Assembly (NCBI GenBank): GCA_963696385.1
Contig: CAVOKF010000007.1
Coordinates: 1,152,001 to 1,216,000 of the forward strand
DNA: 64,000 bases
Source of the DNA: an uncultured delta proteobacterium
GTDB taxonomy: Bacteria; Myxococcota_A; Polyangia; Polyangiales; Polyangiaceae
Direction of reading: 5' to 3'
Each line of letters starts with the position of its first letter. Within the stretch, counting starts at the first letter, position 1. The notes under the pieces were generated by a model. That model had not been told where the DNA came from, made no database searches, and was given only the letters and a program-made list of their open reading frames with translations. A program made the position numbers and the translations under genes. Positions 40,214 to 44,553 of this stretch are shown here, one piece after another.

Positions 40214-43200
40214 GTGAAGCACGCGGCACGGGGCCCACGGGTCGCGCGGGGAAACTCGCTCACCTGGTCGGCCGCGGTGCTCGGTGGGTCCGCCGCCTGC
40301 ACGATTTCACTCCCCGTGGCTTTTCGCCCGCCCTCCGATGTAGGCGATGGTGAGAACACCTCCACCTTGCGGGGAGTGCAGGGCGCCGACATCTCCGCGC
40401 CCACGGGCGGCGAGGGTGCCCGTCTGCTTCCGGTGAGTCTGCAGGAGGCGCGCGCCTGGGGGGCAGAGTCGGACGGAGGAGTTCGCGCCATCGTCTCGGG
40501 CCTGCGCATCGTCGTCGAACCGGACGGCGCCCTCACCGCCGCGTCGGACCGATTGCCCGCGTCGCCCTCCAGCGTCGCGGCCATTCCCGAGCGACTCGGT
40601 GCAGGCTTTCTCTTCGCCATCGGCACACAAGTGTGGCGCTCCGATACCTGGCTCGGTCGGGCGACCCCGATCTTCGCGTCGATTGCGTCGGGTGCGCCGA
40701 TCGGATCGATCCTCGTGGGCCTCGACCGGGCGTATCTACGGTACGCGCCGGGATCGCTCGTGGCGGTCGATCCACGCAACGGCGAATCGCTCGATCTCGG
40801 GCCACTCCCCGCCTCGCCGCACCTCGGCGCCGTCGTCGCCCTCGACGCCTGGCGAGCGCTGGTCGTCGCGGATCTACGTGGCGCGCTCGTGACGATGGAC
40901 GCGGGTGCCTCGTGGCATCCGACCACGCTGCCGATGCCGCCGACCGAGATCGTCGCCATGGACGACGCGTTCGGGGCGTGGGCGCCGGACGAACGCGGCC
41001 ACGCGCAATGGTGGCTTGTCCGCTCGGACGGTCAGAGCGAAGGGCTTCCTTCGCGGCCGCCTCACACCCATTTTCCCCTTTCGCGCCCGGTGCATCCCCA
41101 GGAGAAGTCCGACGCGAGCCCGCGACGGATGGACGATCGAAACGCGATGCGGGCCATCTTGGGCCAGCGTCCCCTTGCCGCGGCCATCGAGGATGGCTGG
41201 CCCCTGAGTGACGGGACGGCGATGGTCGCACGCGGTGGGGCTGTCGCGCGGGTTCGTCTCTCGGACGGGGCGGTGCTCGACACCGTAATGGACGCGTTTC
41301 CGCTCTCCCCGGCACGGTGCCACGGGATTTCTCTGTCGCGTCCCGGCGCCCGCAGCGCCTTCGGTTTTGTCTGCGGCGAGCCACTCGGCCGCACTCGGAT
41401 TTACGGGTGGAATTCGTCATCGGGCACCTTGGTCGAGCTTCGCCGGTTTGACGACGCCCGGCAGGTGACCGCTTGCGGCAACGGGGCTCTCGCGGTGCGA
41501 GGAGGATGCGCCGGCGTGGCCCAGGCGGGGACGCGCGCGGACCAAGCGGCGTGGTGCGTCATGGGTTCGGATCAGCGGTGGCAGGAATTGCGCACTGGCG
41601 CGCTTGACGGCGGCGACAGGGCAGAGCTCGTCGCGCTGTCCGACCAACGCATCATCGTCATCCGGTCTCCCATCGGCGGGGACTTGGCGACCGCGACATT
41701 GACCATCATTCCTGCGGGACCCGGGTCTCCGGAGACCGTTCCGGTCCGGCTGCCGCCGCTGCCCGCCCAGGTGCGAGACGTGCTGAGGTTCGGCACTTGG
41801 ATGGATGGGTTCGAGGAGCGGCGCCCCGGTGTCCTCGGGGGCTGGGTGGACGCGGGCGATGTGGTGATCGGCATCGAGATCGACGGCACCGGCACCGCAC
41901 GCGTCGGCGAGTACCTCCGCGACGCAGGCCCGCCCATCGTCTCGGGACGTTGGGCACTCGGCTGGACGGCGTCACGGCGCGGCTTCGAGTCCGTCGATGG
42001 CGGAATGACGTGGAGCAAAGCGCTCACGCTACCCGATCCCATCGCCGAGCCGGATGCCGAACGTGAGCGTGGATGCGGGCCCATCGGCTGCGTGGCCGCC
42101 GGCTGGATGCGAATCGGCTGGGGGACGCACGACGCACCTCGTCCGCCGGCGCCACCTATGTTTCTCGCCGCACGGTCGGCCCCGATCGCTCCGGCCGATC
42201 TGCGCCTCCGCTGCGAGCCTCTCGCCCCGAGGCCGCCTATCGTCGCGTCGGGCCCATCGCCGTCGGCGCTCCGAGTCACCGCCACGCACCTGGATCCCGC
42301 GCGCTCCCGCACCTCGCAGGCGGCCGGTGTCGACACCTGGGGCTCCGTTGCCGATTTTCCTTCGTTTTCCGGATTGGCCGGCCCGGCTCTCGTCGGCGGC
42401 GACCTCGGGCTCACGGTCGAAGCGTTCGTCGGGACACGCCCGCTCGGCCGGGTGTACGCCTGGGGCCCCGCCACGGGCGATTGGGACTCGTTCGGAGGGT
42501 GGCAGGTGCGTTGGGATTGGGCCTGGGGTGGGTGGCAGGACGCACGATCGTCGGCCGCTGCGCCCTCCCCTTGGCCCACGCTCGATAGCGCGCGGCGCGG
42601 GCTGGGAATCGGCTCCAACATGCCGATTGCATGGACCCTCCTGCCGGGCGACGATCCGGATCACGCACTTCTCGTATCGAAACATGGCCCGGGGTCCTCC
42701 ATCGCTCGGCTCATGGTGCTCGAGAGCCATCGAGCGCCGCTGCCCGTGCAAAGAGACGGCAGCGATTCCTTTCCCGCGGTGGAAGGGGCGTTGCGCACCG
42801 ACGGCCGGTGGTTCGTCGTAACAGCCGAGGATCCGTCGGAGGGATTGGCCGCGGCGCTCTGGACCATCGAAGGGGATCGCGCCCGTGTTTGGCTCCGAAT
42901 ACCGCGATTGGGGTTCGACGCTCGCGCCGACCTCCGACTGGCCTCCCGAACCGATGGGCGCGCGGTCGGCTTGATCGCCGAGGGTCAACCGGACCTCGCC
43001 CGAGCGCCGAGTGCGTGGGTCGTGAGCGTCGACTTGCAAACGGGTCAGATGGCCGAGCCCGAGGCCCTGGCTGCGCTGGGCGCGTCCAAGCACGAGGTCG
43101 AAGTGTGCGCGCCCGACGATCCCGGTTGGGATTTCGACGTGCCGTACCCGGGCGTCATCGAGATCGAGGTCGGCGATCAATGGCGCTCAACCCTTCAGGC

Positions 43201-43414
43201 CGCGCGGGCACGAGTGCGCTCGACGCGGGATCGTGCATGCATCGTTCGGATCGCGGCCTCGGTCGACCCCTACGCGTCGATCACGCCCGAGGCGCTGACG
43301 GGCGGGGCAAGCCCCGGTGCGCCGACCCGGCAAGCGACAGGGCCCCCGCCGGTGCAACTCAGCGTCTTTTCGGCGCGCACGCGCTTTGCTTTGAATTGTG
43401 TGGCACGGCGATAG
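40214..43414 (+). CDS. Large exported hypothetical protein (BNR/beta-propeller-like)
   Basis: Long ORF, probable lipobox SAAC, Asp-box-like TMDAGASW and SVDGGMTW, CGPIGC; start approximate. Confidence 0.7.
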   Translation: MKHAARGPRVARGNSLTWSAAVLGGSAACTISLPVAFRPPSDVGDGENTSTLRGVQGADISAPTGGEGARLLPVSLQEARAWGAESDGGVRAIVSGLRIVVEPDGALTAASDRLPASPSSVAAIPERLGAGFLFAIGTQVWRSDTWLGRATPIFASIASGAPIGSILVGLDRAYLRYAPGSLVAVDPRNGESLDLGPLPASPHLGAVVALDAWRALVVADLRGALVTMDAGASWHPTTLPMPPTEIVAMDDAFGAWAPDERGHAQWWLVRSDGQSEGLPSRPPHTHFPLSRPVHPQEKSDASPRRMDDRNAMRAILGQRPLAAAIEDGWPLSDGTAMVARGGAVARVRLSDGAVLDTVMDAFPLSPARCHGISLSRPGARSAFGFVCGEPLGRTRIYGWNSSSGTLVELRRFDDARQVTACGNGALAVRGGCAGVAQAGTRADQAAWCVMGSDQRWQELRTGALDGGDRAELVALSDQRIIVIRSPIGGDLATATLTIIPAGPGSPETVPVRLPPLPAQVRDVLRFGTWMDGFEERRPGVLGGWVDAGDVVIGIEIDGTGTARVGEYLRDAGPPIVSGRWALGWTASRRGFESVDGGMTWSKALTLPDPIAEPDAERERGCGPIGCVAAGWMRIGWGTHDAPRPPAPPMFLAARSAPIAPADLRLRCEPLAPRPPIVASGPSPSALRVTATHLDPARSRTSQAAGVDTWGSVADFPSFSGLAGPALVGGDLGLTVEAFVGTRPLGRVYAWGPATGDWDSFGGWQVRWDWAWGGWQDARSSAAAPSPWPTLDSARRGLGIGSNMPIAWTLLPGDDPDHALLVSKHGPGSSIARLMVLESHRAPLPVQRDGSDSFPAVEGALRTDGRWFVVTAEDPSEGLAAALWTIEGDRARVWLRIPRLGFDARADLRLASRTDGRAVGLIAEGQPDLARAPSAWVVSVDLQTGQMAEPEALAALGASKHEVEVCAPDDPGWDFDVPYPGVIEIEVGDQWRSTLQAARARVRSTRDRACIVRIAASVDPYASITPEALTGGASPGAPTRQATGPPPVQLSVFSARTRFALNCVARR

Positions 43415-43552
43415 CTCGTCCGCTCCTCCGCCGCCCCCCCGCACCCGAGGCGACTCGTCGCCCGCACTCGCGATCGTGCACCCGAGCGGCCAGGTCTTTC
43501 AAAGTTGCACGGCCGCCAGCCGCTTTCCTCGTGTTTTCCGCGAAAAAGTCGG

Positions 43553-43567
43553 TGGCACGACCACTGC
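43553..43567 (+). promoter_or_regulatory. sigma54 -24/-12 promoter
   Basis: TGGCACG-ACCA-CTGC; one mismatch to TGGCACG-N4-TTGC. Confidence 0.65.
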
Positions 43568-43577
43568 ACTCAACCCG

Positions 43578-43634
43578 AGTGCCCGTGTGGAGTGAGGCTG
43601 CCCCCCCGGCCCCTCTGCGCGGGCACTTTTTTTT
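43578..43634 (+). ncRNA. Candidate ~57-nt hairpin sRNA with C6 loop and T8 terminator tail
   Basis: 15-bp stem 43578-43592/43613-43627 with 3 G:U pairs, inner 5-bp stem 43596-43600/43607-43611, loop CCCCCC, T8 at 43627-43634; starts ~11-12 nt after the -12 GC. Confidence 0.55.
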
Positions 43635-43637
43635 GGT

Positions 43638-43994
43638 TCATCGAGCGGGCGACCCATCGGCCCCGATGATTTCGACGCCCGGGCCCGGATCCCACACGAC
43701 GACGTCGTCCCCTTCGACGAGGGCGGTCAATCGACGCTGATCGCCACATAGACCGCGCGGCCACAAGAGGCGCCCGGTGACCAAGTCGAACGCATAGGCG
43801 TGCATCGGACACAGGACGCAGGCTCCGCGTCGTTCGCCTTCGCTCAGACTCGCGCCCGCGTGATTGCAGGCGTCCTCGATGGCGTGGGGCGTATCGTCGA
43901 CGAGCGCGACGAGCGCGTGAAAGGGTGGATATTCGAGCCGCACCATGGCGCCGTTCGCGAGACGCGCCCGCGGCACGCGCCCGATCCATTTCAT
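43638..43994 (-). CDS. Rieske [2Fe-2S] ferredoxin
   Basis: CNHAG..LSEG..CPMH..FDLVTG. Confidence 0.9.
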   Translation of the reverse strand: MKWIGRVPRARLANGAMVRLEYPPFHALVALVDDTPHAIEDACNHAGASLSEGERRGACVLCPMHAYAFDLVTGRLLWPRGLCGDQRRLTALVEGDDVVVWDPGPGVEIIGADGSPAR

Positions 43995-43998
43995 GGGG

Positions 43999-44553
43999 TC
44001 ACCGCCCCACCGCGAGCGCTGCGTACACGACCGAGTCGTCGACTTGCCCCCCGGCTACGGCGAGCGTTTCGACCCGCGATCCATGGGCCCGTTCGCCCCG
44101 TGCAATCATGCAGGCGTGGCTCAACGCGATTCGGCACGCGGACCAGCGAGGCGACAAGTGCTTTTGAAGCGCGGCCACGACGCGTTCGCCGACCTGCTCC
44201 TGAAGCGACAGCCTTCGCGAGTAGGCTTCGACGAGGCGTCCGACCGTGCCCAGCCCGACCAGATGCTCGTCGGGAGCGAATGCGACGCACGCGGTGCCGG
44301 TGGCAGGCATGAGATGATGCGGGCAGGTCGTCGTGATCGGCAGATCACGGACGACGACCAGTTCAGAGCGCCCCGGGAAGACGCTGGCCGCTAGAAGGGC
44401 GTCGGTATCCACCGCATATCCCGTGAGAAGCTCGTCCGCAAACGCCGCCGCGACCCGATCGGATGTCCCGACCAGGTGAGGGTCGTGGGCCGGATCGCGT
44501 CCGAGTGCGCACAAGAATGCGTGAATCGCCCGAGCCGCCGCGTCACGGTCCAT
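43999..44553 (-). CDS. folE: GTP cyclohydrolase I (divergent)
   Basis: ELLTGY, TCPHHLMP, RRLSLQE, HACMIARG. Confidence 0.85.
   Translation of the reverse strand: MDRDAAARAIHAFLCALGRDPAHDPHLVGTSDRVAAAFADELLTGYAVDTDALLAASVFPGRSELVVVRDLPITTTCPHHLMPATGTACVAFAPDEHLVGLGTVGRLVEAYSRRLSLQEQVGERVVAALQKHLSPRWSACRIALSHACMIARGERAHGSRVETLAVAGGQVDDSVVYAALAVGR

Follow-up and report, generated by a model that had tools for sequence, protein, structure and literature searches.

The window analysed here is a 64,000-nt stretch of the genome of an uncultured delta proteobacterium of the family Polyangiaceae (GCA_963696385.1, contig CAVOKF010000007.1, positions 1,152,001 to 1,216,000 of the forward strand), and the subject of this report is a short element on its + strand, at 43553-43634, in which a predicted sigma-54 promoter is followed by a GC-rich hairpin with a C-rich loop and a T tract. 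An earlier note, made from the letters of the DNA alone, had proposed that this element specifies a sigma-54-dependent small RNA (sRNA). The element lies between two convergent genes (Table 1). The upstream gene, the reading frame of which is backed by periodicity of the GC content at third codon positions (GC3), encodes a protein of 1066 aa with a basic N-terminus followed by the lipobox-like sequence LGGSAAC; searches of Pfam and NCBIfam assigned it to no family, and picked up only faint BNR/Sortilin-like traits (Pfam BNR, E 0.023; protein atlas scores of 0.85 or lower, which we treat as a lead only). Beyond the downstream Rieske gene, a Pfam scan identified a gene for GTP cyclohydrolase I and then a DUF2203 gene. 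The promoter word TGGCACG-ACCA-CTGC (TGGCACGACCACTGC) is located at 43553-43567, and all of the components that the earlier note had described – this word, the two stems, the C loop, the T8 tail, the G:U pairs of the + strand and the opposite orientation of the downstream gene – are indeed found where it had placed them.

Table 1. Features of the candidate sRNA locus (positions are those of the 64,000-nt window)
Feature	Position	Strand	Basis or remark
Sigma-54 promoter, -24 TGGCAC and -12 CTGCA	43553-43568	+	Invariant positions, fixed distance to hairpin
Predicted transcription start	43578-43580	+	Canonical sigma-54 geometry and constant promoter-hairpin distance
Hairpin, predicted body of the RNA	43578-43627	+	Folding, covariation; conserved core 43581-43624
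Outer stem, 15 bp, AGTGCCCGTGTGGAG / CTCTGCGCGGGCACT	43578-43592 / 43613-43627	+	Pairing read from sequence
Inner apical stem GGCTG/CGGCC	43596-43600 / 43607-43611	+	One G-C pair between outer and apical stem
C-rich loop CCCCCC, presumed seed or recognition site	43601-43606	+	Closed by G43600-C43607; C7 run in all
T8 tail, with the hairpin a predicted intrinsic terminator	43627-43634	+	GC-rich stem, then U tract
Distal upstream block TCGTGCA, ~-102, candidate second activator site	43474-43480	+	Conservation
Proximal upstream element CTTTCAAAGTTGCACGG with TTKCA-N4-TGMA near -75, candidate enhancer or operator	43496-43512	+	Conservation
T-rich patch TTTTCC	43534-43539	+	Between upstream element and promoter; TTTT in the consensus of alignment A1
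Large lipoprotein-like gene, family unassigned by profile searches	40214-43414	+	Syntenic neighbour, outside the RNA
Convergent Rieske [2Fe-2S] gene	43638-43994	-	Pfam PF00355, E 2.3e-10

The hairpin folds with -35.6 kcal/mol, as compared to -19.8 +/- 2.8 kcal/mol for shuffled sequences (z -5.73), and none of the 200 shuffles folded as well. Its three non-Watson-Crick stem pairs are U-G, U-G and G-U on the + strand and would be A-C mismatches on the - strand. With a GC-rich stem and a U tract on the transcribed strand it has the make-up of an intrinsic terminator; a simple terminator scan overlooked it, as the loop limit of that scan disallows internal structure. The promoter word, taken alone, is little proof of a promoter: the exact TGGCACG-N4-YTGC occurs once in the window as compared to 0.22 occurrences expected, and 19 of 100 shuffles contain it at least once. 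A second sigma-54-like word with one mismatch to the pattern (TGGCACGGCGATAGC, 43401-43415, + strand) overlaps the stop codon of the upstream gene.

A 321-nt query detected the hairpin in 28 of the 30 other genomes of the genus (below, G000 denotes the window's own genome, other G numbers denote relatives and L numbers excised loci). Of the remaining two, G010 yielded only a 20-nt piece at a contig end and G002, which is 66% complete, gave no match. The matches usually span only 43551-43637, i.e. the promoter and the hairpin, and several are 100% identical over ~50 nt. We computed majority fractions over the 29 genus members of an alignment of 30 sequences (A1); one of these members, G027, is an unpublished genome, and without it the tallies of 29/29 given below become 28/28. 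The footprint consists of TCGTGCA (mean of 0.98 over 7 columns, as compared to 0.25-0.51 in the adjacent columns), CTTTCAAAGTTGCACGG (0.89), the -24 TGGCAC (0.98), the -12 CTGCA (0.99) and the hairpin core (0.99), and is set among poorly conserved columns: the promoter spacer (0.51), the 12 nt around +1 (0.43) and the flanks (0.25-0.47). The 44-nt core (43581-43624) is identical in 19 of 29 species, with a mean pairwise identity of 0.974. In the tail, CACTTT is nearly invariant; the remainder is T-rich and interrupted in many relatives (majority fraction 0.66). The flanking proteins are far less conserved: of the 18 loci in which the upstream protein was found, 17 show 35-45% identity and one, that of G003, shows 88%, and the Rieske protein is 65-76% identical across the same genus loci. 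At 97% identity, the hairpin is thus kept in a way that contradicts a role as terminator only. As far as sequence comparison can settle it, the hairpin and promoter are real beyond chance.

The earlier note had also pointed to a covariance search as a check of its proposal, and our model, R1, recovers the family across genera, with promoter and hairpin conserved. The R1 searches scored only ~34 first-look candidates per genome, so that misses are weak evidence. In the order sample R1 matched 22 of 151 genomes (G000 included), among them 15 of the 23 other genomes of the window's family, with 12 further genera represented; weak matches were obtained in a second family. The class sample yielded matches in 6 of 151 genomes and the phylum sample in 10 of 151 at E up to 0.05, the strong ones being confined to the window's own family. 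The loose pattern GGCTGNCCCCCCN{0,3}GGCCC gave at least 120 matches in the genome collection, and of 80 such loci scanned with R1 one was a true family member. Searches of Rfam returned nothing overlapping the element over 42800-44300 at E up to 10 (four weak matches elsewhere are far below gathering scores) and no match at E up to 1 for six paralog or relative loci. Our literature search found no paper on small RNAs in Polyangiaceae, and, among the matches listed for Sorangium small RNAs, no publication that, judged by title or abstract, deals with such an RNA.

Within G000, R1 matches four places: the focal hairpin (82.8 bits), C6:56103-56168 (63.4 bits), C3:701595-701663 (31.4 bits) and a 16-nt apical fragment. 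The C6 paralog (+ strand; L039 1501-1566) shares the base and the apical loop of the focal hairpin, shows covariation in the mid-stem, and is conserved in G003 and G001; no sigma-54 word, palindrome or T tract was found at its locus. The C3 paralog (- strand; L040 1501-1569) carries TGGCAT-N5-TCGCA and two TTTCA-N4-TGAA-type sites upstream, and is an orphan in its setting, ~1.2 kb without a convincing open reading frame (ORF), beside a DDE transposase gene. A third exact copy of GGCTGCCCCCCCGGCC is located at C4:1111788-1111803 (- strand), outside any long hairpin; by a rough estimate, the three copies of this 16-mer in 6.9 Mb compare with ~0.1 predicted by composition.

Pairing was evaluated in a second alignment (A2) of 35 sequences comprising the genus, two neighbouring genera and four paralogs. 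Pairing is intact in 99.2% of the 629 cells of A2, and at 7 of the 18 pairs both partners have changed in a compensatory way; the observed pairing was reached by none of 500 shuffles, and sliding the partner columns reduced it to 34-56%. No variation is seen in the apical GGCUG-C7-GGCC or in the base GCCCG/CGGGC, the mid-stem covaries (most clearly in the paralogs), and the C loop is unchanged in all 35 sequences. In other genera the C run is 7 to 10 nt long, a variation in length by which we ruled out a small protein or other coding reading.

Across the 30 sequences of A1, the T, GG and C of the -24 element and the TGC of the -12 element are invariant and the spacer is variable. A survey for [ACT]GG-N10-GC-type words upstream of every family member located a sigma-54 motif in 29/29 genus members (27-29 nt from the apical stem), in 8/16 members from other genera of the family (27-30 nt), in 6/6 second-family members (26-30 nt) and at the C3 paralog (28 nt); the same search found none upstream of the three C6-type paralogs. 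The C loop and the -24/-12 motif, on the conservation of which the earlier note had staked its proposal, are therefore both kept at fixed spacing throughout the genus, and in further genera and the second family. Over the 13.9 million positions of G000 the loose sigma-54 word turns up 13131 times, or ~1e-3 per position, so that chance would put a match at a given fixed place in well under 1% of cases. With the C of the -12 element at 43567, the canonical start 12 nt further on is 43579, at the hairpin base and three bases 5' of the conserved stem; we infer that transcription starts at ~43579. G000 encodes one rpoN (a single Sigma54_DBD match, 215 bits) and has 52 Sigma54_activat matches, of which 44 are strong (E 2.1e-39 or better). 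The locus thus has two features of the sigma-54-dependent sRNA class, namely GG-N10-GC at a fixed distance from the RNA in a genome encoding both rpoN and enhancer-binding proteins.

The eight family members without the sigma-54 motif all have TTGNNN-N16-17-TANNNN, mostly as TTGCAA-N17-TACCTN, ending 21-22 nt from the apical stem, a fixed distance that would place the start at the same point, the stem base. These sigma-70-like promoters are seen at loci L031, L045, L047-L051, L053 and L054; G184 holds both promoter types, and G139 keeps a visible old -24 element in which only the GG is altered. As read from these alignments, an exchange of promoter class with retention of the start point is what would be expected of a unit that begins at the hairpin, and not of a terminator beside a chance word.

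The strongest upstream element, CTTTCAAAGTTGCACGG, is missing from the earlier note's account, which had drawn attention to two other dyads. Both are present in G000 and each is conserved in one half only: in the A/T dyad (43534-43546) the T-rich half, which may act as an intrinsic bend, is kept and the GAAAA half is not (G000 and G003 alone have the A-run), and of the GCAC-N8-GTGC palindrome (43464-43479) the TCGTGCA half is the conserved part. The 200 nt upstream of the RNA contain a TT[TG]CA-N4-TG[AC]A palindrome in 29/29 genus members, 14/16 members from other genera, 6/6 from the second family and 1/4 paralogs, i.e. in 50 of the 55 family members examined. G000 holds 53 palindrome-type words and 58 strict sigma-54 words, of which seven pairs are 15-110 nt apart; among these, a TGGCA[CT]-type -24 element is combined with the palindrome only at the two RNA genes (C7, C3), which makes the site specific to the RNA family. 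Scanning G000 for the palindrome beside activator genes returned nothing convincing.

At the level of sequence we have thus shown conservation of promoter, spacing, structure and upstream sites, together with their independence of the flanking genes. We consider it probable that 43553-43634 (+) is an independent gene for a trans-acting sRNA of ~52-56 nt, with a transcript of these ends. RNA polymerase with sigma-54 would bind TGGCAC-N5-CTGCA, activation would probably come from the conserved upstream sites at ~-75 and ~-102 through a putative regulator, and transcription would start at ~43579 and end at the hairpin and U tract; the whole RNA would be one hairpin doubling as its own terminator. 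Conservation of promoter, hairpin and loop, the genomes with a divergent upstream gene (see below) and the orphan C3 paralog support the sigma-54 sRNA interpretation of the earlier note, and from these we infer the transcript itself. Judged by the aligned relatives, the element is unusual in being reduced to one hairpin, in the extreme degree of its conservation and in the turnover of its promoter.

As to how such an RNA would act, the C run is its only conserved single-stranded element, and no match to Hfq was found in G000 (96% complete). On these grounds, and by analogy with 6C and with the first stem-loop (SL1) of the myxobacterial sRNA Pxr, we tentatively favour, at somewhat less than even chances, a mechanism that dispenses with Hfq: the exposed C6-C7 loop, perhaps along with the neighbouring CCCCUCU arm, would pair with G-rich stretches of mRNAs, for instance at ribosome-binding regions.

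Several observations weigh against this reading of the locus. The RNA is nearly always found behind the same upstream gene, which precedes it in 18 of 19 genus 3-kb loci and in ten other-genus loci, an arrangement that would also fit an element of the 3' untranslated region (3'-UTR). In at least eight relatives a co-directional gene lies within ~40-200 nt downstream, and U tracts are often interrupted; a partial leader role is possible there. The upstream palindrome is retained in lineages with the sigma-70-like promoter; it need not, therefore, be a sigma-54 enhancer, and we call it a candidate operator or enhancer. In a Sigma54_activat search of the loci, no true family member had an activator gene within 1.5 kb; the one match near R1 loci was at L061, a 26.7-bit chance-level RNA match. 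Pairing through the C loop would face ~3000 G runs of 6 or more in G000 (1508 and 1497 on the two strands), 253 of which are followed 2-15 nt later by a potential start codon of a plausible ORF; a complementarity search of G000 found no outstanding target (the best stretch is 19 nt at 95% identity, E 0.23), and the target search through the C loop which the earlier note had envisaged could not name one. Finally, there are the RNA data, which consist of unstranded Logan contigs of metatranscriptomes: these give neither transcript ends nor strand, and standard libraries would lose a 55-nt RNA. Eight metatranscriptome runs hold part of the window, each with a share of 0.23 or less, too small to point to a habitat, and four (X1-X4) were compared in detail. 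X1 contains an identical 297-nt contig which ends at 43467, covering the 3' end of the upstream gene and a further 53 nt. A 496-nt contig of X2 (6 differences, depth 13) extends from ~43540 to beyond 43745 and runs through the Rieske gene, and a 171-nt contig of X3, from a relative, covers the hairpin with 90 nt of upstream sequence, TGGCACG-N4-CTGCA included, and ends 19 nt beyond the tail; X4 had no contig matching the window. The X2 and X3 contigs do not have the limits of a small RNA, and could stem from read-through, from the 3' end of an antisense mRNA or from DNA carried over. Taken together, the contigs place this region in RNA libraries and give no verdict on small-RNA expression.

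The simplest competing explanation is that the hairpin serves only as intrinsic terminator or 3'-UTR stabiliser of the upstream lipoprotein-like gene, with the sigma-54-like word making no separate RNA. Its position behind a same-strand gene, the textbook terminator structure and the X1 contig are all in line with this, and the upstream proteins, 23-45% identical over the genus and other-genus loci where they precede the RNA, stay linked to it in other genera even at 23-33% identity despite evolving fast. Terminators are, however, not kept as this hairpin is when the gene that they supposedly end diverges, nor does a terminator account for -24/-12 and upstream blocks conserved between variable spacers. 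In G061 and G123 the RNA is preceded by a divergent gene (asd and an enoyl-ACP-reductase-like gene, respectively), and so the hairpin there terminates nothing but its own transcript; the orphan C3 paralog, moreover, has the same promoter type and palindrome. The earlier note had named a hairpin that merely ends the upstream gene as the outcome that would overturn its proposal, and the divergent genes, the orphan paralog and a hairpin more conserved than the flanking proteins contradict it; we regard this explanation as very improbable. Scarcely more credible is a cis-acting 5' leader or attenuator, in which the promoter would drive the downstream gene and the hairpin would control read-through or translation. 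This would suit those relatives in which gene X (secreted or lipoprotein-like, without a Pfam family) follows the RNA (G021, G022, G184, G109 and G070, with 36-74% identity among the five copies) or in which other co-directional ORFs do so (G139, G129, G172), and would suit the many interrupted T tracts. G000, however, has no copy of gene X anywhere (tblastn), and 17 of 19 genus 3-kb loci have the convergent Rieske gene downstream, with the hairpin unchanged. In 5 of the 6 genus genomes with gene X a separate motif, TGAGAC-N21-TACAGT, stands between the terminator and the gene, so that leader function cannot explain the conservation, and the C3 paralog has no convincing same-strand ORF within 3 kb downstream, the nearest ORF being 768 nt away on the opposite strand. 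The TGAGAC-N21-TACAGT motif, seen in L016, L018, L026, L028 and L029, is located ~25-80 nt past the RNA, with the gene X ATG ~8-20 nt further on, and may drive transcription of gene X as a leaderless or near-leaderless mRNA.

The opposite strand offers another possibility, that, by an antisense mechanism, the element regulates the convergent Rieske / GTP cyclohydrolase I operon, the mRNA of which would read through the hairpin. The X2 contig spans the Rieske gene through the hairpin to ~43540 and would be consistent with this, as would a - strand terminator-like site (GTGGTCGTGCCAC and a T run, 43564-43552), near which the contig ends. The Rieske neighbourhood is, however, confined to part of the genus and absent from the other-genus loci, conservation of the RNA extends to other settings, and the terminator-like site is specific to G000 and G003; of all the explanations we find this one the least believable. 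As that site overlaps the -24 element, the end of the Rieske-operon mRNA may be antisense to the small RNA in G000/G003-type strains. The main alternative for the action of the RNA, as distinct from its existence, is an independent sRNA serving as ligand or decoy for a protein that would read the near-invariant stem and loop. We keep this role open because both stem arms, and not the loop alone, are almost invariant in the genus, more than loop pairing needs; the paralogs, with base and apical part kept and the mid-stem covarying, would fit two recognition points, and the genome search produced no distinctive complementary target. Against it stand the lack of a candidate protein (CsrA is encoded in G000, and a role as CsrA sponge was rejected since the GGA motif is not invariant in the family) and the documented precedent of C-rich loops that pair with mRNA (PMC6486639). 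We judge the protein-binding role to be unlikely, though well ahead of the explanations that deny the RNA its independence.

The independent sRNA gene that we prefer would matter in several ways. Myxobacteria rely on sigma-54 and its activators to a very large extent, and, to our knowledge, Pxr is the one sigma-54-driven myxobacterial sRNA with a studied function; a second, structurally simpler, family-wide RNA would provide a handle on post-transcriptional control in Polyangiaceae. It has its own enhancer-like site, common to paralogs. It would be a natural example both of an sRNA whose only structured element is its terminator and of promoter-class turnover with a fixed transcription start, and the covariance model R1 can be used for annotating the family. 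A broader picture, which we offer as speculation and think rather doubtful as a whole, would have the terminator hairpin itself as the functional module, an ancient relative or convergent twin of Pxr SL1, with sigma-54-driven C-loop RNAs controlling social or developmental decisions across Polyangiaceae as well as in Cystobacterineae. The upstream site would then be the target of a regulator devoted to a very small regulon (two RNA genes in G000), the promoter class would have been exchanged with start and operator kept, and the tRNA-like constancy of the stem arms would stem from a conserved protein or ribosomal partner.

Among known systems, Pxr (RF01812; Myxococcus and other Cystobacterineae) offers a close likeness: it is a myxobacterial sRNA with a predicted sigma-54 promoter and an upstream enhancer (for which the present element has a candidate site), a C-rich hairpin and a host, M. 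xanthus, without hfq (PMC5568312, PMC5684412). The C-rich stretch is placed in SL1 by the published G-rich Northern probe, which pairs within this stem-loop (PMC5568312, PMC5684412), and a single C-to-A change in the SL1 loop is described as abolishing function (PMC5684412). Pxr is given as an RNA of 108 nt with three stem-loops, of which SL1 is the first, adjoining the activator gene nla19 and reported only in Cystobacterineae (PMC5568312). The element described here differs in being one hairpin of ~55 nt, instead of three stem-loops over ~108 nt, with no activator within 1.5 kb and with other neighbours, the upstream gene lacking a Sigma54_activat domain where an nla19-type gene would be expected. 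The Pxr model gave no match over 42800-44300 (Rfam, E up to 10) and none in G000 and 150 other genomes of the phylum, in a search that had no positive control and scored 23 first-look candidates per genome. The sigma-54 promoter is thus what the two share among the traits compared, and the kinship with Pxr at which the earlier note had hinted is unsupported as membership.

The 6C RNA of Actinobacteria (Mycobacterium, Streptomyces), which has more than one C-rich loop and is not known to be tied to sigma-54, belongs to another phylum; the present element has one C-rich loop and no Rfam match, and falls outside 6C. The likeness lies in the high-GC host, the C-rich hairpin loop and pairing without Hfq, which would apply here by analogy and for 6C is documented as G-C pairing of the C-rich loops with mRNAs without Hfq or ProQ (PMC6486639).

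The -24/-12 promoter and upstream sites recall a further set of RNAs. Qrr, GlmY/GlmZ, CrcZ and NrsZ are sigma-54-dependent sRNAs that combine a -24/-12 promoter with upstream activator sites, and the Qrr RNAs occur in several copies per genome that are co-regulated through the same site. These RNAs are longer than the one predicted here, with single-stranded seeds or repeated motifs apart from the terminator, and most lie beside an activator gene. MicL and DapZ are sRNAs embedded in the 3' ends of genes and have their own promoters; as with these, the RNA lies directly behind a same-strand protein gene, the terminator of which it would share, but its promoter is intergenic and not inside the upstream coding sequence, and the RNA persists where that gene is absent. 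As far as its sequence relatives reveal, the element represents a new, uncatalogued RNA family, a member of none of these groups that would work like Pxr SL1, 6C and the other sigma-54-dependent sRNAs.

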